Assembly (NCBI GenBank): GCA_027451905.1 | Contig: DAIDHV010000008.1 | Span: forward strand, 1 to 64,000 | DNA: 64,000 nucleotides | Origin: Armatimonadota bacterium | Lineage (GTDB): Bacteria > Armatimonadota > Fimbriimonadia > Fimbriimonadales > Fimbriimonadaceae | Reading direction: 5' to 3' | Part shown: positions 4,956 to 59,578 of the stretch, piece by piece | How the letters are laid out: the number at the start of each line of letters is the position of its first letter | Position numbering within the stretch: the first letter of the stretch is position 1 | Position numbers and translations under genes: made by a program | Notes under the pieces: generated by a model | Told to the model about the DNA's origin: nothing | The model's input: only the letters and a program-made list of their open reading frames with translations | The model's database searches: none

Positions 4956-4988
4956 GGTTGACTCTTAAGATTTGATAGGCTGTTTTTG

Positions 4989-40890: not shown

Positions 40891-42036
40891 TTGGATCGCT
40901 CGCAACTTGCGGTGAAGGTTCCTTTTTACGATATTAAAGCCCAATACGATGAACTTCAACAGCCGATTGACGCGGCGGTTCATGAAGTGATCTCGTCGGG
41001 CACGTACACCATTAGCGGCGGGAAACACTGCCTTCAATTGGAAGAAGCCGTTGCCAAATTCCACCAAACCAAGCATGCCATCTCCCTCAATTCGGGCACC
41101 GATGCCTTGCGCATCTTGATGGACTCCGCCGGAATTGGCCCGGGCGACGAAGTGATAACGACCGCCTTTACCTTTGTCGCCAGTGTTGAGACCATCATGC
41201 AAACCGGCGCCGCTCCCGTATTTGCCGATATCGAGCTAGACACGCTGCAGATTGACCCCCGCTCTATTGAAGCCGCCATTACGCCTAGAACAAAGGCAAT
41301 CATGCCCGTTCACTTGTTTGGACAAATGGCAGACGTTGACGCCATCTCTGCGATTGCCAAAAGGCACAATTTGATTGTCATTGAGGACACGGCTCAGGCT
41401 ATAGGATCTCGCCATAATGGAGTTCCTGCTGGCAATTTTGGGATCGGGGCTGGATTAAGTTTTTACGTCACCAAAAATCTTGGCGCGGCTGGAGATGCGG
41501 GCATGATCCTTACAAACGACGACGCTATTGCCGAATCTTGCCGATCGATCCGCGTTCATGGAATGGGCCGAGAGCGGTACTACTACGATCATCTTGGCTA
41601 CACTAGCCGGATGGATGAAGTTCAGGCCGCCTTTTTGCATGTCAAGCTTTCGGCTTTGGAAAAATGGAACAACAGACGCGCTCAGCTGGCAGCTATTTAC
41701 GAAGAGGTCTTAGCTGATTCCAACCTAAAACTTCTAAAAACCCTTCCTGGCAACAACCACACTTACCACCAATATGCGGTTCTATGTGAGCGGCGCGATG
41801 AGCTCCAAGCGGAGTTAAGGAAGGCAGAGGTGGACAGCATGATTTACTATCCGGTTCCCATTCACAAGCATCTGCCATACAAAGGTTGCAAAATCGGCCC
41901 CACTGGTCTCGCTCGGTCAGAAGAGGCGGCAAACACCGTACTTTGTTTGCCGGTTCATCCCCACCTGCAAGAAGATCAGGTTCAATTTGCCGCAGAACAG
42001 GCTAAAAACTTCAGCCTCAACTTAGTAGCAAGATAG
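40891..42036 (+). CDS. DegT/DnrJ/EryC1/StrS-family sugar aminotransferase
   Basis: PLP enzyme with the characteristic N-terminal and Lys regions of the DegT family. Confidence 0.85.
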   Translation: MDRSQLAVKVPFYDIKAQYDELQQPIDAAVHEVISSGTYTISGGKHCLQLEEAVAKFHQTKHAISLNSGTDALRILMDSAGIGPGDEVITTAFTFVASVETIMQTGAAPVFADIELDTLQIDPRSIEAAITPRTKAIMPVHLFGQMADVDAISAIAKRHNLIVIEDTAQAIGSRHNGVPAGNFGIGAGLSFYVTKNLGAAGDAGMILTNDDAIAESCRSIRVHGMGRERYYYDHLGYTSRMDEVQAAFLHVKLSALEKWNNRRAQLAAIYEEVLADSNLKLLKTLPGNNHTYHQYAVLCERRDELQAELRKAEVDSMIYYPVPIHKHLPYKGCKIGPTGLARSEEAANTVLCLPVHPHLQEDQVQFAAEQAKNFSLNLVAR

Positions 42037-42112
42037 GCTGCCCTAAAGGGCCATAGCCTGCACTTGGGCTTAACTCTCCAAGCCCAAGCGCAGAAAAGAG
42101 AGACGCCAACGT

Positions 42113-43483
42113 CTAAGAGAAACCCAATTCGATCACTCGCTTTTTGACCAGTTCACGAAATGCACCCGAAGCCGCGTCCACCTGGTCATCATGGGCGCCG
42201 GCAGTTGGAAAAAGGGCCAACTCATTAAGAAAATCTAGGTTCCATGGTGCTCGGACGAGCCGAACATGACCCGCTTCTGCCTGGGCACTCAGAGGCTTGG
42301 CCCTTGCCGTTTTGTCTCCCGAGGAGCGCACGCCTCGAAAATCAAATCCACAAAGGATTTCCCGCCGATACCGATCAACCAAACCAACTCCGCTGCTCCC
42401 TGGCTCTTGCTCCATCCTAACGCTGACCATTTCCCCATCCAGCTGGGCAGTTTGCCTGACCAATTTCTCGACCGTCAAAGGTGTTTCCCGGACGCGGCGC
42501 ACATCTTCAATGGTCAGCCGTCCATCTTGCCCTCGGTTCATTAGCACTCCCACCGTGTAGTCGGGATCGGTGCCTTTTGTTGCCTTTGTGGCAGCGAGGT
42601 CCCAAAATCGCACCCGCTGACCGCCAGGAGGCGGCAGCTCTACAATGCCAAACCATTCCGGCTTGAATAGATTTCCCCCTTCTACCACGTCCCAATCTCC
42701 GTCTAGCAGCCGCTTGCGATCTACCAAATTGAGGGCCCTTAAGTTGGCCAAATAGCCCGGATCTCTTGCCATTAAAATGGCATTGTCATAGATATTAGAG
42801 CAGATAAACGCCACACTTTTACGATTCGGGGACGGCTGGTTGTGCCAAACCGAGACGCCTGCTTCTCTTTCTAAATAGCGCATCTCGCCGCTTGAAGCGT
42901 GAAGAGGATGAGAAGGATCAAGCCACGGGGCTAGGAAAGATTTGACCCAGCTTGTGGCATCGGGGTTGGTTGTTGCTCGAACATACGGCCGGATTCCACA
43001 CGTGGATCGATTGCGGCTAAGAAGATAAAAAAATTGAGATTCGGTAAAGTGGGTCAGCTCATCAAGACCAAGGCCGCAGATTTGAGCACCCTGAAATTGA
43101 AGCTTGTCTTTTTCGTATTGCAAGGAATCGAACCGGATTTTTGATCCCGCCGGAAACTCCCACTCCATCTTGATCTCCTTTCCCTTGGCGCCAAGAAGAG
43201 GGTACAGATTTTGGGATTCATCCCATAATCCGCCTTCCATCCGAACTTGCTCTGAAGTGCGGCGAAAAATCACCGCGCCAAAGGCAGGATTCTTGACGTG
43301 ACGCAGAAACTCTAACAACAAGGCGTAGGTTTTGCCGCCCCCCGCCGCACCGCCATAAATGGCAATGTCGGCTGGGGAGCTTAGAAAGGTTGTTTGAGGA
43401 CCTGGCTGAGGCCCGATTTTGACCATCACTTTTTTGGGGGGAATGGCTTTGCCAATGCAGCCAACGGATGGAGGAGGATTCAA
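42113..43483 (-). CDS. terL: Phage terminase large subunit
   Basis: Walker A GGAAGGGKT, Walker B LDELTHF, C-terminal RNaseH-like nuclease with HDDQVDA. Confidence 0.85.
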   Translation of the reverse strand: MNPPPSVGCIGKAIPPKKVMVKIGPQPGPQTTFLSSPADIAIYGGAAGGGKTYALLLEFLRHVKNPAFGAVIFRRTSEQVRMEGGLWDESQNLYPLLGAKGKEIKMEWEFPAGSKIRFDSLQYEKDKLQFQGAQICGLGLDELTHFTESQFFYLLSRNRSTCGIRPYVRATTNPDATSWVKSFLAPWLDPSHPLHASSGEMRYLEREAGVSVWHNQPSPNRKSVAFICSNIYDNAILMARDPGYLANLRALNLVDRKRLLDGDWDVVEGGNLFKPEWFGIVELPPPGGQRVRFWDLAATKATKGTDPDYTVGVLMNRGQDGRLTIEDVRRVRETPLTVEKLVRQTAQLDGEMVSVRMEQEPGSSGVGLVDRYRREILCGFDFRGVRSSGDKTARAKPLSAQAEAGHVRLVRAPWNLDFLNELALFPTAGAHDDQVDAASGAFRELVKKRVIELGFS

Positions 43484-43776
43484 GGAGAAGATCGGCCATT
43501 GTCGGGCAGAACAATAACAACTCTGCTTTCCATGCCAACTTCTGCCGATGTGTGAACGGTAGCAGCGGGCTTTCCAAAGGCTCGGTTTAGTAAATATTCG
43601 ATTGCCAGCCGATCAGGGGGACGCGTAAACACCGCTTCACCCGATTCATCAAAAACTCTGATGCCATCGGCAAGCTCCATCATCCTCTCCACAAGGTCGG
43701 GCACCCTTGGCAAGATTCTGCCTACCGCACTGTCGGCTGCTTTTTGAGCAGATGGCTTTTTGGTGCCTACAGCCAT
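43480..43776 (-). CDS. Small protein translationally coupled to terL (possible terminase small subunit or helper)
   Basis: 4-nt overlap with terL; size and position only. Confidence 0.35.
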   Translation of the reverse strand: MAVGTKKPSAQKAADSAVGRILPRVPDLVERMMELADGIRVFDESGEAVFTRPPDRLAIEYLLNRAFGKPAATVHTSAEVGMESRVVIVLPDNGRSSP

Positions 43777-43961
43777 CCCGTAAGCAGCACGCCCCGCTCA
43801 TCAAAAAGAACCCTAGCCCCTGCGGGAACCACATCATTGGAAGACTGCACCGAAAATGTCTTTTGGTCCAGACCGTAATTAAGGACGATGGTGCGGTTTA
43901 GCCTGCCAAACGTGATGCCAAAGGCGCGAAATTTGATATTTAAATTTATGTGAAAACTCAT
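43767..43961 (-). CDS. Small hypothetical protein (65 aa) in the prophage module
   Basis: ORF with ATG preceded by an AT-rich promoter-like region. Confidence 0.25.
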   Translation of the reverse strand: MSFHINLNIKFRAFGITFGRLNRTIVLNYGLDQKTFSVQSSNDVVPAGARVLFDERGVLLTGWL

Positions 43962-44206
43962 ATTTTCTGACGAATTGAAGATTTTTTGGTCATTTAGTCC
44001 CGAACTTAGAGAACATGGAATGAAATTTGAAAGATTTGTCGTACAATAATAAAAGACATTGTTGTCGTGTAAAGTAACGACAAACCTAGCTTGGAACATC
44101 GGAGACATTCGCAGCAGCAAAATTATTTCAATATCATTTGCAAGTTATTCTGCCCGTAGTACTAGTGGTACAGCGGGCTTTTTCTTTGATCGGGACCAAT
44201 TTGCGT

Positions 44207-44392
44207 TTAAGAAGCTGGAGGGTTGAACCGAAATAACTTCAATCCAACCACTCCGCTCAGCAAAGCTGCTATTGCTTGCCCGCAGGTGGGCCACCGGTTA
44301 GAGGCAAAAATGGGGGTGAGGGCGGCAAGGTAAGAGCCAAGAAAGGCTGCAATATATTTGGCAACCAAGGGTCCAGTTAGTTTTGAGTTCAT
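44207..44392 (-). CDS. Small 2-TM membrane protein (holin-like)
   Basis: 61 aa with two hydrophobic helices; sits within the lysis cassette. Confidence 0.4.
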   Translation of the reverse strand: MNSKLTGPLVAKYIAAFLGSYLAALTPIFASNRWPTCGQAIAALLSGVVGLKLFRFNPPAS

Positions 44393-44480
44393 CGAGATTC
44401 TTTGGGGGTTAAGGGGGGTTGGATTTGGAAGTCTTAAGGATTTTCAGTTCCAAGCACAGCGGCAAAACGGGGATGAGGTG

Positions 44481-44774
44481 TTAGGGTTTTAGGGTGCGGC
44501 TTTCGATGAGGCGATCCAGTTTGGCTTCAATCCGATCCAAGGTTCGACCTTGGTTGCTCACGTGGGTTTCCGCCGCCGTCAGACGGTTATCAAGCCTGTC
44601 TAGCCTCTCGCGGACCAGACGGTGCCTCTCCTCTGACACCTTGGAGGCGGCATCCACTTCCTTGATCTGATCTCGGATCGACTCGTTGGCACCCTTGTAC
44701 TTGCCGCCAAACCACAGGGCGCCTCCAGTGAACAAAACAATCGGCCAAATGGCAGATATCCATCCAGGATTCAC
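44481..44774 (-). CDS. N-terminal TM plus coiled-coil protein (holin/spanin-like lysis accessory)
   Basis: TM WISAIWPIVLFTGGALWF followed by a charged coiled-coil; lies between the endolysin and the holin-like gene. Confidence 0.4.
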   Translation of the reverse strand: MNPGWISAIWPIVLFTGGALWFGGKYKGANESIRDQIKEVDAASKVSEERHRLVRERLDRLDNRLTAAETHVSNQGRTLDRIEAKLDRLIESRTLKP

Positions 44775-44783
44775 TTTTCTGGC

Positions 44784-45383
44784 TTACTCCCACCATGCGC
44801 CGCCCTGAAAATCGTCGCACCGTAAAAACCACATTTCTCCTCCGTTGAAAACCGGATGGGTTTTTTGATACGCTCCATCCGCCCCGGCTCCATCAGGAGG
44901 CGTGGTGTTGTACTCTACCGTGCCAATCGAGATGACCTGATCACCTGCATCGGTGAGCCTTTTTTCCACAAATCCAATATGGCCGTGGCCATTGGCAAGA
45001 GTCCAACCGAAGAGGGCGCCATGCCAATCTAAAAGATTCTGGGGGTCATGACTCAGCCTGCCTCGGGCCTCAAACCAGTCGCGGATGTCTTTGGCAAGCC
45101 CATGAAATGGAAATCCAGACGCGCCCGCTTGATGAAAACACCAAGAGACTCCCGCCGCGCAATAAGGCGAGCCAATAGGATTGCCCACAAACCGATTGAG
45201 AGCGTTGATGCGGGGGTTGACATCGTCACGTTTAAGGTCTCGCAGCGGCAGCTGAACATCAAGAAGCGCCCAATCCAGTGCGGTTCTTGCCTTGATCTTA
45301 GTACTTTTTTGTTCACTTGCCCCCAATTTAGGCCACCCCTTTGTTTGCCTGACCAGCAAGGCACTTTCTTGCCCGCCAAACAT
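44784..45383 (-). CDS. CHAP-domain peptidoglycan hydrolase (endolysin-like)
   Basis: Cys...His CHAP signature: SPYCAAGVSWC and GHGHIGFV. Confidence 0.65.
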   Translation of the reverse strand: MFGGQESALLVRQTKGWPKLGASEQKSTKIKARTALDWALLDVQLPLRDLKRDDVNPRINALNRFVGNPIGSPYCAAGVSWCFHQAGASGFPFHGLAKDIRDWFEARGRLSHDPQNLLDWHGALFGWTLANGHGHIGFVEKRLTDAGDQVISIGTVEYNTTPPDGAGADGAYQKTHPVFNGGEMWFLRCDDFQGGAWWE

Positions 45384-45948
45384 AGGTGCGGATGGTAGCC
45401 TCGGTTGCCCCCATCACAGCAGCCGCTTCTCGGCAGCTCATGCCAAGGATCGTCACGCAAGCAAGGGCACGTCGGTAGGGTGTTGGAAGGCACTCCAGAC
45501 GGTCATAAACGTCATCAAATTCATCAGACGGGCCCTCTTCACAAATAGCGCCATCAAGGGCAGAATCACACGAAACCGTCTTTGGCGAGCGATCAGATTT
45601 GCGCCTCATGGCAGAGGCTTCTGACCTGATAATCGTGCCGATCCAGGTTCCAAACGAGCCGAGACTGGGGTTAAATTGCTTCCATTTGCTGCAAACCGCA
45701 AGACGAACGGAAGAGGCAAGATCTTCTTGATCTTCGCGGCTTTTGGTGGAACTTTTGCAGAGTTTTGCAATGAGCCCTTCGTGTTTAAACAGGGCAAGTT
45801 CAACCGCTTTTTGATCCTCGGAGGATAGCATCTTGCCGATCGGCTCGGCGTCGTCGGTTGGAAGCAGAACAGCACGAACCGGGTCCGATTCTTCAAGGGT
45901 CAAGCAGGGGGAACAAGAAGCTTCAGCAGCCTGAGCTTGGGATAACAT
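45328..45948 (-). CDS. ECF-type sigma-70 family factor
   Basis: Region 2 and region 4 HTH (LPTPYRRALACVTILGMSCREAAAVMGATEATIRTYVWRARKCL). Start taken at MLSQAQ. Confidence 0.7.
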   Translation of the reverse strand: MLSQAQAAEASCSPCLTLEESDPVRAVLLPTDDAEPIGKMLSSEDQKAVELALFKHEGLIAKLCKSSTKSREDQEDLASSVRLAVCSKWKQFNPSLGSFGTWIGTIIRSEASAMRRKSDRSPKTVSCDSALDGAICEEGPSDEFDDVYDRLECLPTPYRRALACVTILGMSCREAAAVMGATEATIRTYVWRARKCLAGQANKGVA

Positions 45949-46013
45949 GGCGCAAGTTTGGATAGGTTGAAAAGCAATCACAATTACTAAATAGTATCTT
46001 TTTGTCTTATATG

Positions 46014-46044
46014 TTGACATTTTAGGCTTACATTTAGATACAAT
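46014..46044 (+). promoter_or_regulatory. Sigma-70-like promoter (TTGACA ... TACAAT) for the repressor gene, inside the divergent sigma/repressor control region
   Basis: TTGACA at 46014-46019 and TACAAT at 46039-46044; spacing is somewhat long. An alternative -10 is possible. Confidence 0.4.
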
Positions 46045-46050
46045 AAGTTA

Positions 46051-46788
46051 GTGGATGCAGGAAGGAAACTGGCAATGGCAAGGCGATACTTTGCTCCTGC
46101 CCTCAATCAGGCGGAGCTTGCCGCGAGGCTCCGAGTTTCTAGGTCCACAGTGGCACGATGGGAAACCGAAGGCAGCCCCACTCCCGAGGCGATCAGCAAG
46201 GTTGCTCATTGGCTTGGGATTGATCCTTTTTGGTTCACCGACGGATCGAGTCATCCTCCAAGATTTGCGGGCGGAGAGCCTTCCAATGCAAGGCAGGTCA
46301 AGCCACTAGAATCTGAATTTGCATCATTCTCTTTGTCGAGGGGCGATCAGGTGCTGCTGCCAATTTGGAGAGGGGTCATGGCGAGTGAAGGCGAGTGCGA
46401 ATTTTGGCCGTCTGATTCAGTAGAGTTTAGGGTTGCGCCCTCCTTTTTAGCCTCTGCTGACCCTGAATCTCACATTCTTTGCATAGCAAGCGGGATGAGC
46501 ATGGCCCCAAGGATTGACCACGCCGAGAAGGCGATTGCCAAAATTGATCCCGATCCGCCGATCGGAGCCATTGTCATTGCTCGGCGTCCGGATGGGGCCA
46601 ATTTCATCAAGGTCCTAAAAAAGGCAGATAATCGCCGCCTAGAATTGCACAGCCTTAATCCCGATTTTCCTCCCATTACCAGTTCAAGGGATTGGCAGCT
46701 CAAGGGCTATGTGGTCGCCATTTTGCACACCTACCACGGCGCCGGCGCCAATATTGAGTGGGACGACGGTCGCCCCCTCCGCGGCTAA
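46051..46788 (+). CDS. CI/LexA-like repressor: XRE-type HTH plus S24 peptidase (autocleavable) domain
   Basis: HTH (QAELAARLRVSRSTVARWE); S24 Ser motif GMSMAPRI and downstream Lys (FIKVLKK). Confidence 0.8.
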   Translation: MDAGRKLAMARRYFAPALNQAELAARLRVSRSTVARWETEGSPTPEAISKVAHWLGIDPFWFTDGSSHPPRFAGGEPSNARQVKPLESEFASFSLSRGDQVLLPIWRGVMASEGECEFWPSDSVEFRVAPSFLASADPESHILCIASGMSMAPRIDHAEKAIAKIDPDPPIGAIVIARRPDGANFIKVLKKADNRRLELHSLNPDFPPITSSRDWQLKGYVVAILHTYHGAGANIEWDDGRPLRG

Positions 46789-46960
46789 GCACCATCTATA
46801 GGCGAGGCATTGATTAGCCAGGCAAATCTGCTTCCATGACACCCAGAAAACTATTTGCGGGCGATGAGAGATTTACCCAGTTCAGTCTCAGAGGCTGGGG
46901 GCAGGTCCCAGTCTGCATAGCCAACACTACTTCCAAACCATTAGCACACCAAAGTGATCT

Positions 46961-47608
46961 GTGCTAGAGTCATTGAAACGAATGGATAACGATAATCGCC
47001 ATCTGCAATACTTAGAACAAATTCGCAGGTGGCCGGATGGCCGACTCGTGAAGTTTTCTAAGCGCGAGGATCAGGCCGACGGTTCCGTCATTTTCTCACA
47101 ACCCTACTCGAAAACGTACACAAGAGAACTAGGGAAAAAAGGTCCAGTTATTTGTGCTACAGTGCCCAGAGACGGATTAAGCCTTATTTTTAAAATCTTG
47201 GAATCTAAGCCCGAACCGTTTATGTTTCTCTATGTCCTTGTGGTATCCGCGGCTGGAGGAGGGTCAGAAGGTCGTTATCAGTTTGAGGATTGGGTTGATC
47301 GACCCTATCTTTACGACTGGCTCACGCATCACCGAGACTTCCTAGAGCAGGATGGCCGACATAATCTTTGGATCTTATGTGGGGATCAATCGCAAATTGT
47401 TTATGATCGCCATGAAACCCTTTACCTGTATGGTGACCCTGATCCAATGGAGGCTATCCTCAAGGCAGACGGGTATCAAGAAGGTGAATTCGCGGTAGAT
47501 TTTGCCCATTCTCACCACTATCATCGAGAGTTCAACCATTTTGAAAAAGCCATTGCCGAGAGTGAGGAGTTCATATTTTTTCCTCTTGTGCCTGAGCAGG
47601 ATATTTAG
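46961..47608 (+). CDS. Hypothetical protein (215 aa) flanked by an imperfect direct repeat
   Basis: ORF with no recognised domain. Confidence 0.45.
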   Translation: MLESLKRMDNDNRHLQYLEQIRRWPDGRLVKFSKREDQADGSVIFSQPYSKTYTRELGKKGPVICATVPRDGLSLIFKILESKPEPFMFLYVLVVSAAGGGSEGRYQFEDWVDRPYLYDWLTHHRDFLEQDGRHNLWILCGDQSQIVYDRHETLYLYGDPDPMEAILKADGYQEGEFAVDFAHSHHYHREFNHFEKAIAESEEFIFFPLVPEQDI

Positions 47609-47696
47609 CCCCTTCCTTGCCATTAAGCGCCGCGCTACCTTCTTCATTCTTTTATCCCCTTTGAGATGCAACAAGGAACTAAAGAACTTGAGGAAA

Positions 47697-47735
47697 AATA
47701 TCAAATGGGACGACAGCCGCCCACTGAGAGGCTGA
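47697..47735 (+). repeat. Second, degenerate copy of the repressor 3' end (encodes ...NIKWDDSRPLRG-stop versus NIEWDDGRPLRG-stop at 46750-46788)
   Basis: About 28 of 39 nt identical, with mostly synonymous differences. Confidence 0.6.
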
Positions 47736-47772
47736 CCGCCGTCAAATTTGTAAAAAGTTTGTTCAACTAAGG

Positions 47773-49431
47773 CTACTCCGATTCGATCCGAAGGGCGTAG
47801 GCATAAAGGCAAGGAGGGTGGTCTGGCAGCTCCACGGTTAGCCCTTCTGATCCTTGATGGAAACTTATTTTGCCACGATGCCCCAAAAGCTCAACCGACC
47901 TCACTTTTTTGCCAAATACCGCACTTGACGAACCCAACGCCTTAAAGCTGACCTGGCTGCCTGTGGGCCAGCCCAAGAAGAAGGCATAAATGGTATCTCC
48001 TTTGGTGACGTACCGCTTATCAGCGGCAGAATACTGCTGAGAGCCCTCATTAAAGTTCGATTGATACCCACCGTTTTGTTTTCGATCAACATCCGGCCCT
48101 TCACCATAAATCACCCATGGCCGCGTAGAATGAATCGCGTCTTGGTTCACTTCCATCCAGTCTCCAAAAAGATTCACAAATTTCTCTTCTTCTGAATCTA
48201 TTTCCCCGTTCCCTCTCACGGGTATGTTCAACAGCAAATTCCCGTTTTTGCTAATGATGTCGATCAGCATGTGGGCAACTCTTTCCGGGGTTTTGTAGGC
48301 TTTATGCTCATAAATCCACCGGCTGTAGTGCCAATCGCCAATGCAGGTATCGGTTTGCCAATGAAATGGCTCGATTCGATCTGCCAATCCCCGCTCGATA
48401 TCCCACGTTATCGCCTTTCTTTGGCTTTCGTTCAGGAGTTTCCCCGTCATGATGCACTCATTTTTGCCCCCGTTTTTGGCAGCGCTCGTGTTGTACAAAT
48501 GGGCGGCAATCCGTAGCCCATAAGAGGGGTCGGTATCGTACAAAGGCATCACATAGTCATCAAAGTAGAGCAAATCGGGTGAGTATTGGTTGATCAGATC
48601 AATCACCCGATTAAAAAACTTTTCGCAGTAGGCCTGGTTGGGTTTGGCGCCGATCGGGTGGTTTTGGGCGTACAAATCTTGGGGATCATAACCTTCCCAC
48701 CAATGGCCAACCCCATCGGCTTTGGTTAGCTTTCCATCATAGGGAATGCCCTGGAATGGGCCATCTGCATCTGCCCCTTGGGCTACTTCAAACCAAGACC
48801 ACGTGCGTGCCGCGTGGCAGGTCACTCCAAACTTCAATCCTGCGCTTCTGGCTTCTCTTTCCCAAGTTCCCACAATATCCCGCTTGGGACCAATGTTCAT
48901 CACGTTCCAAGGCTGATACTTGCTGTTAAAGCAGTCCAAATTGTCGTGATGATTGGCAAGGGCCACAAAGTATTTAGCTCCTGCCCGCTTGTACAAGCCG
49001 ATCAGCCGGTGAGGATTCCAGTTTTCTGCGTGCCACCGATGGTCAATATCCTTAAAACCCATGTAACTGGGGTGACCATAATGCTGCGCCTGATACTTGT
49101 AATCATGGTTCAAAGACCGTTTGCCGTGGTCCTCGTTGTATTCAACATACATGGATCGGGCATACCAATCGCCTTGCTCGGGCACACATTGGGCGGTCCA
49201 GTGGGCCCAAAATCCCAATTTGGCGTCTTCAAACCATTCTGGAGTCTGAAAGTGAGACAGAGAATCCCAATTGGGCTGAAACGGACCCGAAGCAATCGGC
49301 AACGTCTCTTGGACCGGTGACGGCGTCGAGAGGGCAGAAGCCAGGCCTCGACCAGAAGCAGGCAACACAGAGGCAGCCGCGCTGGTGACGGCTCCATAAA
49401 GAACGGTTCGGCGGGTTAGATTTTCGCTCAT
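47773..49431 (-). CDS. GH29 alpha-L-fucosidase with twin-arginine signal
   Basis: RRTVLYGAVTSAAASVL Tat motif. GH29 catalytic-domain similarity, including the region around the catalytic Asp. Confidence 0.85.
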   Translation of the reverse strand: MSENLTRRTVLYGAVTSAAASVLPASGRGLASALSTPSPVQETLPIASGPFQPNWDSLSHFQTPEWFEDAKLGFWAHWTAQCVPEQGDWYARSMYVEYNEDHGKRSLNHDYKYQAQHYGHPSYMGFKDIDHRWHAENWNPHRLIGLYKRAGAKYFVALANHHDNLDCFNSKYQPWNVMNIGPKRDIVGTWEREARSAGLKFGVTCHAARTWSWFEVAQGADADGPFQGIPYDGKLTKADGVGHWWEGYDPQDLYAQNHPIGAKPNQAYCEKFFNRVIDLINQYSPDLLYFDDYVMPLYDTDPSYGLRIAAHLYNTSAAKNGGKNECIMTGKLLNESQRKAITWDIERGLADRIEPFHWQTDTCIGDWHYSRWIYEHKAYKTPERVAHMLIDIISKNGNLLLNIPVRGNGEIDSEEEKFVNLFGDWMEVNQDAIHSTRPWVIYGEGPDVDRKQNGGYQSNFNEGSQQYSAADKRYVTKGDTIYAFFLGWPTGSQVSFKALGSSSAVFGKKVRSVELLGHRGKISFHQGSEGLTVELPDHPPCLYAYALRIESE

Positions 49432-49651
49432 TGTTATTGGAATTCCAAGTTCAGCCAGTTTAACAGAAACTTGCTTGGGGCGAAGTCATTATCTTTGCCG
49501 AGCGGCCAAGGCTGATTATGCACCCGCCTATTCGGGGCAAAACTCCAAGTAAAGGACGTTTCACAGTCCGGGCCTTAGCTTGGAGTGCACCCAGAAAGTA
49601 GCGTCTACATCAACGGCTGAAATCTCGTTCTCGCTCATACCCACCACCTTA

Positions 49652-49880
49652 GCGTCTTTGCGTCTTCGCGTGAAAATAGATCTCGCAAAGCCGCAGAGGC
49701 GCAAAGGAGTTCCTCAAAGTTTGTTCGCCAACCACTTGATCCCACCTAAACTTCTTAGCGGCTTAGCGTCTTCGCGTGAAAATTCATCCCGCAGAGGCGC
49801 AAAGAAGCGCAAAGGTTTTCCTCAAAGTTTGTTCACCACCCTCTTGATCCCGTCCTTGATCAATGATTCACCAAAATTGA
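49652..49880. repeat. Two tandem ~115-bp repeat units (GCGTCTTCGCGTGAAAAT...CGCAAAGCCGCAGAGGCGCAAAGGA...TTGATCCC...CTAAACTTCTTAGCGGCTTA). Further copies at 50213-50510.
   Basis: The 18-nt cores recur at 49652, 49766, 50213, 50331 and 50444, and the intervening ~95 nt are alignable. Confidence 0.75.
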
Positions 49881-50196
49881 CCAAAAGCCCCAGCCTCAGA
49901 TCAGATAGCCGGAGATACGTTAGCAGGATTTTATAGGCCACTGGCGGCACGATTTCTAACGACTTAATCTCGACGATGACCCTACCCTCCACGATCAGGT
50001 CAGCTCGAAAACCATCCTCCAGTTTTACGCCTTCGTACACAACTGGAATCGGCCGCTGCCTGTCGACACGTAGCCCCCGAGCCTTCAACTCGTACTCAAG
50101 GACGGTCTCGTACACTGACTCCAACAGTCCGGGCCCTAGCTTGGAGTGCACCTTGAAAGCCGCGTCTACAATAATGGCTGAAATCTCGTTCTCGCT
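49822..50196 (-). CDS. GxxExxY family protein (PD-(D/E)xK nuclease fold)
   Basis: GPGLLESVYE motif. A 27-codon duplicate of its 5' end lies at 49565-49651. Confidence 0.75.
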   Translation of the reverse strand, partial: SENEISAIIVDAAFKVHSKLGPGLLESVYETVLEYELKARGLRVDRQRPIPVVYEGVKLEDGFRADLIVEGRVIVEIKSLEIVPPVAYKILLTYLRLSDLRLGLLVNFGESLIKDGIKRVVNKL

Positions 50197-50212
50197 CATA
50201 CCCACCACCTTA

Positions 50213-54385: not shown

Positions 54386-57300
54386 TTACTTCTTCTCTGC
54401 AGACACCAAGCCAAAGAACCGTTCGAAGAACGCGATTAGCTTTGCGAGAACTCGCTGCTTCTTCTCGCTGTGCCCGCCGTCCGGTGAGAATCGCGAAACT
54501 GGCGGCATCACCTTTGTGATGGCGGTCCCACTCGTACGAAGTACGCCGTCCCGGAAGGCCGCCTCGACGAATGCGGCGGTCTCCTCTGGCTTGAGGTTCT
54601 CCTCGGCAATAATCTGATCAAGTTCAGCCTTCTTGCGCTGATCAACAAAGACTCGCCATTCGGCGTCAACTTCGCCAGTCGCTGAAACCGAATCCACGAA
54701 GTTCTCAATCAGGTCTTTCTTGTTACGTAAGGTTGGCGATGAATCAACAGCTCGTGTGATCTGCGCCCTGATCTCAACATCCTCGCCGTCCCCTTTCGCC
54801 TCACGGAACTTCGCCACCAGCATCAAGATGAAGTCAACGTTGATTTCGACCTGCTTGATCAGCTCGATCTCAAAGACAATGTCATCAAGAATCTGCTCCT
54901 TGTCAGAGTCCTTGGTTGACCTGAAGTCGGCGTAAATGTCGAGGTAGACGCTTCGATAGTCCTGCCCCTGGCGTTGATCGAGCAATTCGTGTCCTTCGAA
55001 CTCATCGAACGAGGTCAAGATGTTTTGCAGGCGCAAGATCGCGCCGAAGAGAGCAATGAAGTCTTTCTTTGCCTGCTCGCCGACGATGCGCTCACCGAGC
55101 GGGAATCTGGCGAGCAACTCCTGCACCCTCTTTTCGTACTCGCGAAAATAGTGCCCGAATGGCTTGAGGACCGCAATGCCCTTGGCGTCCTTGTTACCAA
55201 AAAGTGCAAGAGCGTCGTTCGTTTCCTTCTCAAGATCGCGGAAACTCACGATGTTGCCGTAGGCCTTGACCGAGTTGAGAATCCGGTTCGTGCGCGAGTA
55301 CGCCTGAATTAGGCCATGAGCCCGGAGGCCCTTGTCGACGAACAGAGTGTTGAGAGTCGTGGCGTCGAAGCCCGTCAGGAACATGTTGACCACGATCACA
55401 AGGTCAATCTCGCGGTTCTTTAACCGCAGGCTCAAGTCTTTGTAGTAGTTCTGGAACTTATCCGCCGATGTGTCGAACGATGTTCCGAACATCTGATTGT
55501 AATCTTGAATCGCTGAATCAAGGAAGTCCCGCGTCGCTCCCGTAAGGTGGGCTGTCTCGAACTCTTCTTCCTCGAGAACTCCATCTTCAACAGCCTCATT
55601 GACTGCATAAGAGAAGATGATGCCGATCTTTAAGCGCTTATCAGGCACGCGGGATGCCTGCTGCCGCTTGAACTCCCCGTAATAGATGCGGGCGGCGTCA
55701 ATCGAAGCGGTTGCAAAGAGGGCGTTAAAGCCTCGCACACGTCGCTCACCCAGAGCATAGGAGTCGTTTCGCTTCGTCTTCTGGTCAAAGTGTTCGAGGA
55801 TGTAGCCGGTCACTAGGCCAATTCGCTCGGTTGCCAAGAGAGCCTTCTCTGTGTCAATAGCGGAGACCTTCTTATCCTGCACGTCACCCATCTTCACCGT
55901 GTTCACGTAGTCGATGCGGAACGGCAACACGTTCTTATCGGTGATCGCATCTACAATCGTGTAGGTATGGAGCTTCTCGCCGAACGCTTGTTCGGTCGTT
56001 TTGAGCCGCGGATTCCCTCCGCTGGCCATGTTGGCTGTAAAGATAGGCGTTCCTGTAAATCCAAACAGGTTATATCGTTTGAAGGCTCGGGTGATCGCCG
56101 TTCGCATGTCGCCGAACTGTGAACGATGGCACTCGTCGAAAATGATGACGATGTGCCCGCCGAAGACTTCATGCCCTTTGTTAGCCTCTACAAAGTGAGA
56201 AAGTTTCTGAATTGTCGTGATAATGATCCGCGACTGGTTGTCTCCCAACTGCCGCTTGAGAACCGCCGTCGAGGTGTTCGAGTTGGCAGCCCCCTTTTCA
56301 AAGCGGTCGTACTCGCGCATGGTTTGGTAGTCGAGGTCCTTACGGTCAACCACAAAGAGCACCTTGTCCACGCTTGGCATCTTGCTGGCGAGTTGAGCGG
56401 CCTTGAAGCTGGTGAGGGTCTTGCCGGAGCCAGTCGTATGCCAGACGTAGCCTCCCGCTTCGACTGTCCCTAGCTTCTTGTAGTTAGTCGCGATTTCGAT
56501 TCGCTGCAGGATTCGCTCGGTCGCTGCGATCTGATAGGGCCGCATCACCAGAAGCATCCGGTCCGCGGTGAGAACGCAATAGCGAGTTAGGATATTTAGG
56601 ATCGTGTGCTTGGCAAAGAAAGTCTTAGCAAACGCGGTTAGCTCCTGAATCGGCTTGTTCTGCGAGTCCGCCCACCAAGACGTGAACTCGAAGGAATTGG
56701 AGGTCTTCTTGACCTTCTTTGCTCCAGCGGCATCCTGGATGTGCTGTCGACGCGTCGTGTTGCTGTAATACTTCGTCAGGGTGCCGTTGCTGATAACAAA
56801 GAGTTGCACGTACTCGAAGAGCCCTGTGCCTGCCCAAAAGGAATCGCGCTGATAGCGGTCGATCTGGTTGAACGCCTCGCGGATGTCAACCCCGCGCCGC
56901 TTGAGCTCGATATGCACCATCGGCAAGCCGTTCACAAGAACGGTCACGTCATAGCGGTTGGCCCTCGCAGTATTCCCCTCCTCCGGAGGGGTGTCGCCTT
57001 TGGGTGACGGGGTGGTTTCGTATTGGTTGATGACCTGGAGGCGGTTGTTGTGGATGCTCTGACGGTCGATCAGCTTGACGTTCTTGGTTGTCCCGTCGTC
57101 ACGATTGAGAAGCTGGACCGGGTCTTCTTGGATGCGAACCGTCTTCTCAACAATCCCATCGTTCTGACCTGCAATCTTGGTCTCATAGAACTGCTTCCAT
57201 TCCGCCTCGGAGAATGTGATGCCGTTTAGGATTTCGAGCTGCCGGCGAAGATTGGAGATCAACTGGTCTTCCGATGTGATCCGGAGGTGCTCATAGGCTT

Positions 57301-57457
57301 GCTTCTCCAGTTGCCCGATGAAGGCTCGCTCTAAAGCGTCCTCGCTCTGATAGGTTGCCTCGCGCACAAGGCTTTCGGGAATGTACTCCGCGACTACCGT
57401 GCTCTCATTCGAAACGGCAATCGGCTCGTAGTTATAGGGCCTTCGTTCCTCGCTCAT
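54386..57457 (-). CDS. hsdR: Type I restriction enzyme R subunit
   Basis: Nuclease domain (VTVLVNGLPMVHIELKRRG), SF2 helicase motifs (TGSGKT; IIFDECHRSQ). Confidence 0.92.
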   Translation of the reverse strand: MSEERRPYNYEPIAVSNESTVVAEYIPESLVREATYQSEDALERAFIGQLEKQAYEHLRITSEDQLISNLRRQLEILNGITFSEAEWKQFYETKIAGQNDGIVEKTVRIQEDPVQLLNRDDGTTKNVKLIDRQSIHNNRLQVINQYETTPSPKGDTPPEEGNTARANRYDVTVLVNGLPMVHIELKRRGVDIREAFNQIDRYQRDSFWAGTGLFEYVQLFVISNGTLTKYYSNTTRRQHIQDAAGAKKVKKTSNSFEFTSWWADSQNKPIQELTAFAKTFFAKHTILNILTRYCVLTADRMLLVMRPYQIAATERILQRIEIATNYKKLGTVEAGGYVWHTTGSGKTLTSFKAAQLASKMPSVDKVLFVVDRKDLDYQTMREYDRFEKGAANSNTSTAVLKRQLGDNQSRIIITTIQKLSHFVEANKGHEVFGGHIVIIFDECHRSQFGDMRTAITRAFKRYNLFGFTGTPIFTANMASGGNPRLKTTEQAFGEKLHTYTIVDAITDKNVLPFRIDYVNTVKMGDVQDKKVSAIDTEKALLATERIGLVTGYILEHFDQKTKRNDSYALGERRVRGFNALFATASIDAARIYYGEFKRQQASRVPDKRLKIGIIFSYAVNEAVEDGVLEEEEFETAHLTGATRDFLDSAIQDYNQMFGTSFDTSADKFQNYYKDLSLRLKNREIDLVIVVNMFLTGFDATTLNTLFVDKGLRAHGLIQAYSRTNRILNSVKAYGNIVSFRDLEKETNDALALFGNKDAKGIAVLKPFGHYFREYEKRVQELLARFPLGERIVGEQAKKDFIALFGAILRLQNILTSFDEFEGHELLDQRQGQDYRSVYLDIYADFRSTKDSDKEQILDDIVFEIELIKQVEINVDFILMLVAKFREAKGDGEDVEIRAQITRAVDSSPTLRNKKDLIENFVDSVSATGEVDAEWRVFVDQRKKAELDQIIAEENLKPEETAAFVEAAFRDGVLRTSGTAITKVMPPVSRFSPDGGHSEKKQRVLAKLIAFFERFFGLVSAEKK

Positions 57458-58359
57458 GCTTGCCCTCCTTCATATGCTTGCGCGATGAGCGCCGAGACGT
57501 CCTCGACATCTTTCTGAGCCCTAATCCGAACCTCAAGGTCTCCCGTCCCCCAATGTCCAATCTTGCTTACATCCCGAAGTCCGTCGCGCATTGCCACCTC
57601 ACTTGGGTTCAGGTGGAGATATAGGCAGAATTCGCCTCGCTTTGCGTAGGTAAGACTTGCGAAGTTTCGAGTACGACGAAACGCGATGGAGAGTTTCGTT
57701 TCCTTTTCTGCAATGTCGTCACCCTGCGCGCGAACGGCGGCGCACGTCGCCTCGAAAAGGGCCTTTGTCTCGGCCGATTGATCAGCCAGCCACTGTGCCA
57801 TGGACTTATCCGTGCCGGCCTTCTGTGTTCCTGTTGTAGTCGGAGTCACCCCAGCTTCCTTGGCGCTGGATGTAATACGCTCCAGCAGAAGGTGGCCGTC
57901 TCCAAAGCGACGGTAGCGTACAAGATCAATCATGTTCGGCATCAACTCATACATCCCAAGATCATCCCGAGTGAAATCAGCTGCAATGCACACCAGCCGA
58001 ACCGACGAGAAATCCACACTGTCGGCCACTTCATTTCCTAGCTTGTTAAAAACTGCCTTCCAAAACTCTGCTTGGTGGTTCTTGATCCAACCTAGGTAGG
58101 CTACACCCTGGTTGATAACCGTGCGGTTTTTATCGAGCTTATATTCGATCACCACGGGGAAGTTGTTCTCGTCCAAGCCCAACGTATCGATGCGATTCCC
58201 TGCTCCGGCTACGAATTCGGAAGCAACTAATCGCACACCGAGAAGGGCTTCCAAGTTTGCCTCAAAGAGACTTTGAACGTCCTTTTCTAGCTTGTACGCT
58301 TTGGGATGAGCCTCTTCGACAGAGGCCCCATTCAAGGTGAAAAGTCGGAGCTCGCTCAT
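57454..58359 (-). CDS. Restriction-linked ORF: N-terminal DUF91/NucS-like PD-(D/E)xK domain plus C-terminal DUF5655-like domain. Embedded between hsdS and hsdR.
   Basis: GNRIDTLGLDENNFPVVIEYK (D...E.K nuclease-like motif); 4-nt overlaps with both neighbours. Confidence 0.5.
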   Translation of the reverse strand: MSELRLFTLNGASVEEAHPKAYKLEKDVQSLFEANLEALLGVRLVASEFVAGAGNRIDTLGLDENNFPVVIEYKLDKNRTVINQGVAYLGWIKNHQAEFWKAVFNKLGNEVADSVDFSSVRLVCIAADFTRDDLGMYELMPNMIDLVRYRRFGDGHLLLERITSSAKEAGVTPTTTGTQKAGTDKSMAQWLADQSAETKALFEATCAAVRAQGDDIAEKETKLSIAFRRTRNFASLTYAKRGEFCLYLHLNPSEVAMRDGLRDVSKIGHWGTGDLEVRIRAQKDVEDVSALIAQAYEGGQA

Positions 58360-58928
58360 CCAGCCTCCTGGAAGGTGAGCAAACGGTCGCGATAATGTTC
58401 GTACTGTTGGCGACGAGCGTTAAGCTCGGCAGGAAGGCCGACGGTCAGGTCGTTGACGAGGGCATCGAACCTATCGAGGATAGAGACGATGTGCCGCTGC
58501 TCATCTATTTCTGGGACAGGAATCAGATAATCCTTGATCTTCTGAGCATTCAGGTTTGACTGGGAGCCTTCGCCGAGAGCCTTTAAGCGAGAATACTCCT
58601 TTGCAATCCAGTGGTAAACAAATCGATAGTCCGCCTGCTCTGGGTCAACCTGCAAATTGCAGCAAGCCTGATTTGTCGTGAGGGGAATCGCATTAACAGC
58701 CACCTTAGCGGCGGTTGCTCCATACATAGCTACAATCACGCAATTTGCTGGAATCCACTTAGCCGAAGAATCCTTTAGGCCCGCTTCGGTTATAGTCATT
58801 CCAGTCGACCGGATGACGCCATAGTCAACCTCTTGAGTGCGTAGCCAAGGAATATCTCCGCCGTAGTAGTCAGCTTGCCTAGAACTTGGTGTGCCCCCTG
58901 ACGAGATTTTCGTACAAATCTCAATCAT
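58356..58928 (-). CDS. hsdS: Type I R-M specificity subunit, C-terminal half (TRD2 plus distal conserved helix)
   Basis: HsdS TRD fold; C-terminal RRQQYEHYRDRLLTF conserved motif. Confidence 0.8.
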   Translation of the reverse strand: MIEICTKISSGGTPSSRQADYYGGDIPWLRTQEVDYGVIRSTGMTITEAGLKDSSAKWIPANCVIVAMYGATAAKVAVNAIPLTTNQACCNLQVDPEQADYRFVYHWIAKEYSRLKALGEGSQSNLNAQKIKDYLIPVPEIDEQRHIVSILDRFDALVNDLTVGLPAELNARRQQYEHYRDRLLTFQEAG

Positions 58929-59578
58929 TCTCGCCCACCTGATCCGTCTCTCTCTCTCTCGGTGAACGTCAGCAGCTGATCGCGGTAAAAGGTATACTGT
59001 TTACGCCGCGCCTCTAGCTCCGCCTCTAGCTCCGCCTCTAGCTTACTAAAGGTGTCGAGGATTCTCACTATCTCCCGCTGAATTTGGCTCGGAGGAACCG
59101 GGATTTGAACCTTTGCTAGATTTTGCGTCGAAATGGCCGAAATCTTAGATGAAGAAATGTGGCGCCTTATCTGATTGTGAAAATCGTCAGTTTGGGAGAA
59201 GTAGGCGACATACTTAGGATCAAGGGAGCTACGGATCGCGTAGAGAGCGTCGTGGATCACAACATCCTCGTCTCCGAGCCAAGCTACGGATTTTCCGATA
59301 TCTTCGACAGTTTCTCCGGCCGAGACAAGGATCACGTCGCCCTTGCTGGCGAACCGCAGCCTCGATGCTACTTTGGGGTCCAAGTAGGAAAATGCCGTGT
59401 CGGCCCAAGTCCCATATTTGGTGTACAGTTCGCCATAATGGATACAAGGAACTCCGGACTCGATCATGTCCGCCTTTACAAAGCGCTTACCACGCGTTAT
59501 CGTGCCGATCTCCCCAATGGTCCTATGCTCTACACCTTTAGGGCAAAGTCTTTGGAGCAGATCGTCAATTCGGCTCAT
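58925..59578 (-). CDS. hsdS: Type I R-M specificity subunit, N-terminal half (TRD1 plus central conserved region with ELEA x3 repeat)
   Basis: HsdS TRD; LEAELEAELEARRKQYTFYRDQLLTF. ATGA overlap with the C-half gene. Confidence 0.8.
   Translation of the reverse strand: MSRIDDLLQRLCPKGVEHRTIGEIGTITRGKRFVKADMIESGVPCIHYGELYTKYGTWADTAFSYLDPKVASRLRFASKGDVILVSAGETVEDIGKSVAWLGDEDVVIHDALYAIRSSLDPKYVAYFSQTDDFHNQIRRHISSSKISAISTQNLAKVQIPVPPSQIQREIVRILDTFSKLEAELEAELEARRKQYTFYRDQLLTFTERERDGSGGRE
59011..59046. repeat. 12-bp tandem repeat x3 (CCTCTAGCTCCG) encoding ELEA repeats in the HsdS central conserved region
   Basis: Perfect tandem copies. Confidence 0.85.

Follow-up and report, generated by a model that had tools for sequence, protein, structure and literature searches.

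Terminase genes that stand in a bacterial chromosome without a phage around them raise the question of whether they are debris on its way to loss or a unit that the host lineage has kept. The question is posed here by positions 42113-46788 of a 64,000-nucleotide stretch of DNA (the window) from an Armatimonadota bacterium of the family Fimbriimonadaceae (GenBank assembly GCA_027451905.1, contig DAIDHV010000008.1, positions 1 to 64,000 of the forward strand), where genes for a repressor, a sigma factor, candidate lysis proteins and a terminase lie among housekeeping genes. A first reading of the letters alone (the original prediction) had proposed either a decaying prophage or a domesticated, SOS-inducible unit for lysis and packaging. 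The analysis summarized here indicates that the segment is probably the control, lysis and packaging locus of a domesticated multi-locus prophage element, of the kind represented by gene transfer agents (GTAs) or PBSX, in a clade of Fimbriimonadia.

Gene Content and Conservation of the Cassette

The segment is an eight-gene cassette, with an S24 repressor encoded on the plus strand and seven genes running divergently on the minus strand in the order sigma factor, CHAP hydrolase, p97, p61, p64, p98 and large terminase subunit (TerL). The phage-derived span measures about 4.7 kb, and ORF lists and profile scans found all eight open reading frames (ORFs) intact. Every gene named in the original prediction was recovered in its place; one, p64, had been overlooked. 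The segment holds no portal, capsid, tail or integrase gene, as had been noticed, and Pfam searches of ORFs of at least 150 amino acids over most of the 64 kb found none of these and no replication gene. When the window was searched by tblastn with 117 proteins of a related phage and of structural gene clusters, TerL and p98 were the only matches.

Relatives were collected by tracing close TerL matches to their contigs, and further loci came from a CHAP-profile scan of metagenome contigs. A collinear cassette was found in at least 10 loci (L184, L001, L002, L003/L004, L006/L007, L089/L091, L092, L093, L096 and L098), with TerL proteins 64-79% identical to that of the window. The order in these loci is the S24 repressor and then, divergently, p191 (in part of them), sigma factor, CHAP, p97, p61, p64, p98 and TerL. 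The neighbouring genes differ by lineage: DsbD and proteasome/UBact/Pup ligase genes in L001, LacI-type regulators and prepilin-like genes in L002, PolA, rhodanese and tyrosyl-tRNA synthetase (TyrRS) in L003, LipA and TamB in L006, and DAHP synthase in L089. In the closest relative, L184, a contig of 4.9 kb, nucleotide similarity to the window starts at the stop codon of the S24 gene and ends at that of TerL (42110).

The proportion of synonymous differences (pS) is 0.63-0.90, which is saturated, against a proportion of non-synonymous differences (pN) of 0.08-0.48, in every gene and every pair; the ratio of the two substitution rates (dN/dS) is 0.06-0.32 where dS can be estimated. Judged by this substitution pattern, which the original prediction had proposed to examine, purifying selection acts on the cassette, which is maintained as a block in many lineages.

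A neighbour-joining tree of 49 TerL sequences with 200 bootstraps placed the TerLs of cassette context in one monophyletic group (194/200), with a real phage, L090, outside it as sister; the subclade without p191, to which the window belongs, was recovered in 183/200 replicates. In a portal tree the phage again fell outside, with weaker support (115/200). A complete prophage at the same site in related genomes, which according to the original prediction would have spoken for ordinary decay, was not found, and L090 lies on a contig of its own. The TyrRS proteins of the window and L003 are 78% identical, against 64% for TerL of the same pair, and in both genomes the TyrRS gene shares the strand of TerL and is found downstream of it, at a distance of 24 kb in the window and 6 kb in L003; in a third lineage TyrRS and TerL share one 38-kb contig. 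This vestigial synteny argues for vertical descent, for which congruence with the host tree was tested in part. Among named sequences, the window TyrRS is matched best by those of Fimbriimonadaceae, Fimbriimonas and Fimbriimonadales (72-78%), which assigns the host to Armatimonadota, class Fimbriimonadia.

The cassette was sought among viruses as well. Scans of IMG/VR returned no cassette-type CHAP or S24 relatives, and the relatives of TerL and portal found there were at most 52% and 42% identical, respectively. An alignment-based scan of genome contigs gave, among the matches listed, relatives of at most 53% identity. The sigma/CHAP/p97/p61/p64 set occurs in none of 164 loci with more distant TerL relatives, and at L001, L002, L003, L006 and L089 the surroundings of the cassette out to 10 kb contain no integrase or replication gene.

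Some features of the related loci are not shared by the window. The gene p191 stands between repressor and sigma factor in the other subclade (L002 6065-6640, L003 7378-7953, L006 7228-7803, L089 6844-7716) and encodes the motif FWxRxDVExxRRxxDxWASCKRAxxxGVDGCPT; the window, L184 and L001 lack it, and a homologue of 29% identity is found beside DnaB in the early region of phage L090. A family of proteins of 400-460 amino acids is encoded on the opposite strand directly after TerL in four lineages (L002 11499-18561, L003 11332-14012, L006 11433-12644, L089 14108-15439) and is missing from the window; the members inspected carry an N-terminal transmembrane (TM) segment, and tandem copies occur, four in L002 and two in L003. 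A xylose-isomerase-like TIM-barrel gene (AP_endonuc_2) has been inserted between p64 and p98 in L002 (8852-9607) and L092 (about 2540-3300), which are closely related lineages (94% amino acid identity), so that the p64-p98 junction evidently tolerates cargo.

A Separate Head-Tail Locus in Relatives

The original prediction had advised a search for the missing structural genes elsewhere in the genome, and in relatives they were found at a separate locus, 6 kb, 8 kb and about 55 kb away. L006 and the independent assembly L007 carry genes for an HK97-type portal, an S78 protease and a capsid protein 6 kb downstream of TerL, and the intervening genes, on the opposite strand, encode E1 dehydrogenase subunits, an SDR protein, a glyoxalase and a solute-binding protein. 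The portal gene of L002 lies 8 kb downstream of TerL behind cellular genes of the opposite strand. On contig Ga0207933_1000019 (Joint Genome Institute, JGI), TerL occupies 82.2-83.3 kb on the minus strand and a portal-protease-capsid-tail cluster begins at 26.7 kb on the plus strand, so that the two loci converge from about 55 kb apart; def, fmt and ABC transporter genes flank the cluster upstream of the portal, and pyruvate kinase lies beyond TerL. No integrase or replication gene was seen in the 10 kb that precede the portal locus L088. As these contigs are arranged, cellular genes part the cassette of the relatives from a co-evolving cluster of portal, protease, HK97 capsid and tail genes.

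The chromosomal structural cluster is collinear with that of L090, a temperate HK97-type phage on a separate 44-kb Logan contig (SRR12983677_856). Its TerL, 66% identical, abuts the portal gene, and its portal, protease, capsid and three more head-tail genes are homologous to the chromosomal cluster of cassette-bearing genomes. Also present in the phage are genes for a DnaB helicase and an Acb2-like anti-defence protein; homologues of the S24, sigma, CHAP, p97, p61 and p64 genes were not found in the 21 kb of it that were read. Taken with the TerL tree, these homologies place the cassette in the same phage stock as this 44-kb phage.

The portal clade comprises about 15 clusters at 90% identity, the cassette clade of TerL is of similar size, and 6 contigs, matched by their lengths, are common to both lists of matches. 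No portal match came from the contig of the window itself (112,782 bp). A portal of this clade from NCBI (P0125, on a 102-kb contig) shares 81.5 and 84.5% identity with two portals, themselves 86.7% alike, and the TerL of the window is 79% identical to two TerLs that are themselves 82% alike. This mirrored pattern of distances is circumstantial evidence for a head-tail locus of the window's genome on another contig.

A more distant arrangement is contiguous. In L005 (Armatimonadetes metagenome-assembled genome GCA_018268315.1, JAFDWU010000001.1; TerL 61%) the order is S24 repressor, a 204-amino-acid ORF, RtcB, EamA, M15 peptidase, three small ORFs, TerL, Mu-type portal, capsid and tail; housekeeping genes lie upstream, and the 10 kb read contained no integrase or replication gene. 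This locus could be a second defective element, of PBSX-like type, within the phylum.

Genes for Packaging

TerL (42113-43426, minus strand; the listed ORF extends to 43483) has 437 amino acids from a probable ATG at 43426 and is 100% identical to an NCBI product (P0001). It matches Terminase_6N (E 1.3e-26), Terminase_6C (E 1.6e-18), phrog_979 (E 2e-139) and TIGR01630, so named by Pfam, PHROG and NCBIfam. The ATPase and nuclease domains are both present with intact motifs, namely Walker A (YGGAAGGGKT), Walker B with the catalytic residue (GLDELTHF) and the nuclease motif HDDQVDA; residues G25-K32, D122-E123, D276 and D413-D414 are invariant in an alignment of 20 sequences. A hairpin followed by a T-run (AGACGTTGGCGTCT CTCTTTTCTG; 42101-42114, minus strand), probably the terminator of the operon, overlaps the TerL stop codon.

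Directly upstream, p98 (43480-43776, minus strand) overlaps the TerL ORF by 4 nt when the latter is read from its TTG start. It contains the conserved motif PPDRxAIEYLLNRxLGKP ... VVIVLPDNGRD and is 41-64% identical in 8 loci, and a homologue stands directly upstream of TerL in phage L090 (38% over 69 amino acids). From its position, p98 is a candidate small terminase subunit (TerS). It has 98 amino acids compared with 156 in the L090 homologue, the N-terminal parts align poorly, and no helix-turn-helix (HTH) is detectable. No Pfam, PHROG or PDB profile match was obtained, and a single-sequence AlphaFold model was unusable (predicted local distance difference test score, pLDDT, 55). The small terminases of GTAs were reported to lack a sequence-specific DNA-binding domain (PMC11841831; PMC6854486).

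The gene p64 (43767-43961, minus strand) encodes a conserved protein of 64 amino acids with the motif KFRxFGITFG ... DERGVLL, and its stop codon overlaps the start of p98. Homologues occupy the same position in 9 loci (33-61% identical), and no family match was found among NCBIfam and PADLOC models. The best sigma-70-like promoter match of the region, TTTACA-16-TATTAT (10/12 positions; 44073-44046, minus strand), sits in an AT-rich gap of 245 nt upstream of p64-p98-TerL. It is a consensus match of putative function, and a block within it, CAATGTCTTTT, is kept in L184 (blastn-short).

The gap between p61 and p64 has a further feature in the three lineages without p191 (44140-44200 in the window, 2655-2700 in L184, about 9010-9050 in L001), an A-run followed by a GC-rich hairpin. 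Read antisense it resembles a terminator, and promoter-like sites on the plus strand lie at 44020-44047 and 44108-44137. The arrangement hints at a small antisense transcript; a conserved antisense ORF (tblastx) and an Rfam match were not found in this gap.

The Sigma Factor and the Lysis Genes

The sigma factor gene (45328-45948, minus strand; the listed ORF reaches 46020) encodes about 206 amino acids from a probable ATG at 45948, a start that is favoured because the listed ORF would cover the promoter region. The protein matches Sigma70_r2 (PF04542, E 1e-10), Sigma70_r4_2 (PF08281, E 2e-9), phrog_1740 (E 1.7e-22) and the sigma70-ECF model TIGR02937 (56.9 bits against a cut-off of 42.9). With regions 2 and 4 only, it agrees with the definition of extracytoplasmic function (ECF, group 4) sigma factors, and it is 33-62% identical to the genes at the same position in 9 loci. 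No anti-sigma gene adjoins it, the window having no gene between repressor and sigma factor; the p191 protein that other lineages encode upstream of sigma shows no anti-sigma signature and is phage-derived. Control of the sigma factor seems to be transcriptional and exerted by the repressor.

The CHAP hydrolase, a candidate endolysin (44784-45326, minus strand; longest ORF to 45383), has a probable TTG start at 45326, one base past the sigma stop codon. The Pfam match (E 1.2e-6, 29.3 bits against a cut-off of 26) is accompanied by matches to endolysin PHROGs. Residues C75, H135, E157 and N159 are invariant in an alignment of 6 sequences, and the protein is 50-72% identical across 10 loci.

Two small genes follow. 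The p97 protein (44481-44774, minus strand) has a TM helix at residues 4-24 by hydropathy and then a coiled coil, with coiled-coil Pfam matches and weak matches to Rz-like spanin and holin PHROGs (E about 0.03); it is 40-86% identical in 9 loci. Its topology and position suggest an i-spanin-like or holin-accessory-like protein, and no lipoprotein o-spanin was found. The p61 protein (44207-44392, minus strand) has hydrophobic segments at residues 9-31 and 35-57 by hydropathy, and on topology and position it is a candidate holin. Weakly matching homologues (31-54% identical) occupy the corresponding place in 9 loci, and neither Pfam nor PHROG gave a family match.

The Repressor and the Divergent Control Region

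The repressor (46051-46788, plus strand; 245 amino acids) combines an HTH_3 domain (PF01381, E 5e-9, 36.4 bits) with a Peptidase_S24 domain (PF00717, E 4e-11, 43.1 bits against a cut-off of 23.3) and matches phrog_4 (E 1e-25). It is 55-80% identical to the repressors at the same position in L184, L001, L002, L003 and L006. A LexA-like cleavage strand, RGVMA-SEG, is present, with Ala-Ser in the window and L006 and Ala-Gly in L001, L002 and L003. S150, the putative nucleophile (GMSMAPR), and K187 (FIKVL) are invariant in an alignment of 5 sequences, and on this motif reading they would be the equivalents of Ser119 and Lys156 of LexA; the repressor has diverged too far for a sequence match to any LexA or CI chain of the PDB. 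About 20 residues past the Pfam S24 match form a C-terminal tail, ILHTYxGxGANIEWDDGRPLRG, which is almost invariant across lineages while the DNA-binding domains have diverged. Such conservation suggests that the tail is an interaction surface.

The S24 repressor by which the original prediction had taken RecA-dependent induction to be implied is present. Its cleavage motif in the window reads Ala-Ser in place of the canonical Ala-Gly, and RecA-dependent cleavage, and with it the predicted induction, is no more than plausible.

Between the repressor and sigma genes lies an AT-rich control region of about 100 bp (45949-46050) with promoter-like hexamers and palindromes. TTGACA (46014-46019) and TACAAT (46039-46044) point toward the repressor gene, and its GTG start follows TACAAT within about 7 nt; a transcript from this site would thus have almost no leader. 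The opposite strand has a TATAAG box resembling a -10 element, which lies inside the TGTC-N9-GACA block (46003-46019) and points toward the sigma operon. The candidate operators are this palindrome and TACTAAATAGTA (45985-45996), both short. The blocks TATTGTATC and TGTCAACA...TATAA.ACAAAAA are kept in L184 and L001, and palindromes of the AACA-N4-TGTT type occur at the same spot in L001, L002, L003 and L006. Each candidate operator of the window is present in one copy per locus, which suggests that the repressor acts only at its own locus; the candidates do not recur near portal genes. The claim that all these genes come with promoters and operator-like repeats was borne out in part: the hexamers of the divergent region are conserved in the two closest relatives, but the 7 promoter-like sites counted overall are no significant excess over the 4.2 +/- 2.0 expected, and the candidate operators are short palindromes.

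Surroundings of the Cassette

The flanks are cellular, with DegT, already recognized as a housekeeping neighbour, at 40891-42036 and a fucosidase at 47773-49431. Elsewhere in the window lie menaquinone and arginine genes, TyrRS, aconitase, an ABC transporter, a serpin, a type I restriction-modification (R-M) system and an RHS toxin. The GC content of the cassette is 0.50-0.54 and the window mean about 0.51, so that no compositional anomaly marks it. There is no tRNA gene in the window and no Rfam match in 41000-48500. A 22-nt repeat (42113/47767) considered as a pair of attachment (att) sites was rejected as chance: its copies are 73% identical and are the 3' ends of unrelated genes.

At the 3' end of the repressor gene and beyond it, a 47-nt direct repeat (46750-46796 and 47697-47743, 72% identical) copies the last 12 repressor codons and the stop; the encoded peptides are NIEWDDGRPLRG and NIKWDDSRPLRG, each ending at a stop codon. 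The repeat brackets an insert of 947 bp whose sole ORF (46961-47608) encodes an orphan protein of 215 amino acids, which has no Pfam, PHROG, NCBIfam or PADLOC match. The ORF was rejected as a ninth cassette gene, having no counterpart in any relative. From the repeat, the segment looks like a small insertion at the 3' end of the repressor gene that brought its own replacement gene end.

At 831-7354 a polymorphic-toxin-like RHS/DUF6531 protein (1374 amino acids), a protein with a C39-peptidase domain and a Ser/Thr-rich secreted protein adjoin. The idea that lysis releases neighbouring toxins was rejected, as the RHS/C39 genes are 37 kb from the cassette and none of the related loci has them. 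An ORF at 49561-49704 repeats the N-terminus of the adjacent PD-(D/E)XK_3 gene (49822-50208). The type I R-M system (54386-61170) includes HsdR, a DUF5655 protein, two half-size HsdS proteins and HsdM.

Proposed Mechanism and Alternative Explanations

In the proposed mechanism, the HTH/S24 repressor would bind the overlapping divergent promoters and hold the sigma operon off. An inactivating signal, which would be RecA-stimulated self-cleavage if the Ala-Ser bond is cleavable, would free transcription of the ECF-type sigma factor, and the lysis genes linked to the sigma gene, translationally or transcriptionally, would be freed simultaneously. The sigma factor would then switch on, in trans, both the p64-TerS-TerL unit and the unlinked head-tail locus, which would explain the co-regulation of scattered loci. 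TerS and TerL would fill HK97-type proheads, and the holin candidate, the CHAP hydrolase and the spanin-like protein would lyse the producer and release the particles. That particles are made, that induction runs through SOS and which genes the sigma factor governs are parts of this scheme that we infer. It is quite possible, and falls just short of probable, that the whole amounts to a previously unrecognised particle system of the GTA/PBSX type native to Armatimonadota (Fimbriimonadia), in which domestication would have divided an ancestral HK97-like phage into a 4.7-kb command cassette and a distant head-tail locus, with the sigma factor as the trans wire between them and a release tied to DNA damage.

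Four other explanations were weighed. According to the simplest, the segment is the control, lysis and terminase end of a prophage whose structural genes were deleted and which is drifting to loss, and the lack of structural, integrase and replication genes, the 947-bp insertion at the repressor 3' end and the loss of p191 relative to other lineages would all suit it. Decay, the first option of the original prediction, is nevertheless contradicted by eight intact collinear ORFs in no fewer than 10 lineages, where synonymous divergence is saturated and non-synonymous divergence low, by intact catalytic motifs, by the same cassette ends in the closest relative and by the monophyly of the TerL clade; it is extremely unlikely. 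That the segment is part of a still-active temperate phage, whose structural genes appear separate through large cargo insertions or misassembly, is quite unlikely. The true phage L090, with a TerL 66% identical, and the distance of merely 6-8 kb between portal and TerL in L002 and L006 could be read in this way; against it stand the core metabolic genes in between, on the opposite strand, in an arrangement reproduced in two independent assemblies, as well as the contig with convergent loci some 55 kb apart and cellular flanks including def and fmt, the lack of integrase and replication genes near either locus, and the terminator and DegT that follow TerL in the window.

The window genome might instead make no particles and use the cassette as a stand-alone, SOS-gated suicide or lysis module, which would resemble abortive infection or serve to release cell contents, with TerL co-opted as a nuclease or ATPase. 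No structural partner lies within -42/+17 kb, repressor, sigma factor, lysin and holin would suffice for regulated lysis, and the TerL nuclease domain is intact. We still consider this unlikely, for TerL and the TerS candidate are kept as a coupled pair with a co-evolving portal/capsid clade (6 shared contigs, about 15 clusters each), TerL retains the full ATPase and nuclease motifs as in packaging enzymes, and PADLOC found no defence model beyond generic HTH and coiled-coil matches. The domesticated lysis and packaging unit of the original prediction is favoured, with the correction that the unit does not stand alone, its cognate portal-protease-capsid-tail cluster being 6-55 kb away in relatives. 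A satellite resembling phage-inducible chromosomal islands (PICIs), with its own terminase and lysis genes and hijacking capsids of an L090-like helper, would account for the compact 4.7 kb with sharp ends, the varied neighbourhoods, the private repressor and a TerS/TerL pair related to that of a real phage. Since no locus has an integrase, a primase or replicase, or flanking att repeats, GC content is ameliorated to the host, the TyrRS synteny points to vertical descent and the cognate portal and capsid genes are chromosomal in the same genomes, a satellite is very unlikely.

Several points weigh against the preferred reading of a domesticated multi-locus element. It is known from gene sequences, and nearly all related sequences are metagenome contigs. 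The roles of TerS, holin and spanin are assigned by position and topology only. The 64-kb window contains no structural gene, the link of portal P0125 to the genome is circumstantial, and the window genome could have lost its head-tail locus. Inspection by eye revealed no sigma-dependent promoter motif shared by the cassette gaps and the regions upstream of portal genes. The presumed scissile bond of the window repressor is Ala-Ser and not the canonical Ala-Gly (or Cys-Gly), and L089 has no S24 gene within 10 kb. Genomic context is known for part of the TerL clade only, and the trees were built by neighbour joining.

If the reading of a domesticated multi-locus element is right, a barely studied phylum offers a candidate GTA with an unusually clear evolutionary record, consisting of a sister free phage, intermediates with 6-8 kb of cellular DNA between TerL and portal, and fully separated versions. 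The design from S24 repressor to ECF sigma factor to dispersed late genes is testable and could explain how multi-locus domesticated viruses are coordinated. For annotation, the lesson is that a "terminase without a phage" need not be debris but can be a unit under selection.

Comparison with Known Systems

GTAs are known experimentally from few lineages, namely Alphaproteobacteria, Brachyspira, Desulfovibrio and Methanococcus, and a review of the field points out that new GTAs are not findable by homology and that more, and more diverse, examples are needed (PMC11841831). RcGTA of Rhodobacter capsulatus is a multi-locus GTA (Hynes et al., 2016, PMC5026251) whose activator GafA acts through RNA polymerase (PMC9638019), and the review also cites VSH-1 of Brachyspira, a divided GTA (PMC11841831). 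The cassette resembles multi-locus GTAs in several respects. Packaging, structural and lysis genes of phage origin occur without replication or integration functions, the loci are dispersed among host genes in three relatives (for the window genome the corresponding observation is only the absence of structural genes within 64 kb), and purifying selection, inheritance with the host and a dedicated sigma-like activator are shared features. It differs from the RcGTA-like family at the level of protein models, as NCBIfam returned only the generic TIGR01630 and the GTA head-formation model scored 16 bits on p97 against a cut-off of 50. It also differs from known GTAs in belonging to another phylum, in being split between TerL and portal, and in having the lysis genes beside regulator and terminase. 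RcGTA is governed by CtrA, quorum sensing and GafA, whereas the cassette has a LexA/CI-type S24 repressor and an ECF sigma factor.

Within the phylum, a Fimbriimonas prophage has been described as a complete, excising element of 45.5 kb (PMC4072686), and our literature search found no GTA or comparable element described for Armatimonadota. The nearest known phage is L090, to which the cassette is linked by TerL, by the p98 homologue upstream of it, by the p191 homologue in the early region and by the collinear head-tail genes of cassette-bearing relatives, and from which it differs in that L090 is contiguous, its TerL abutting the portal. The repressor follows the plan of LexA and lambda CI-type proteins (MEROPS S24), with an N-terminal HTH, a C-terminal S24 domain, the RGVMA(G/S)EG strand, the SM motif and a downstream Lys; Ala-Ser in the window repressor and the extra, invariant C-terminal tail of 20 residues set it apart.

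PBSX, the defective prophage or phibacin of Bacillus subtilis, offers another parallel. It is induced by DNA damage, does not propagate itself and packages host DNA. Its repressor gene lies by that of the phage-type sigma factor Xpf, which switches on the late operon, and this operon starts with terminase genes and includes holin and endolysin. All this forms one cluster of about 28 kb, in which the structural genes come right after the terminase and the lysis genes stand at the far end, and its repressor Xre has no S24 domain. The cassette shares with PBSX the repressor beside the sigma factor and the sigma factor ahead of the TerS candidate and TerL, and presumably also the activation of late genes. 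Unlike PBSX, it has no contiguous head-tail cluster, TerL being followed by its stop codon, the terminator and DegT; its repressor is of the S24 type, and homology is at family level at most. Based on these comparisons, we classify the cassette as the compact control, lysis and packaging part of a multi-locus element that derives from a phage and was domesticated independently.

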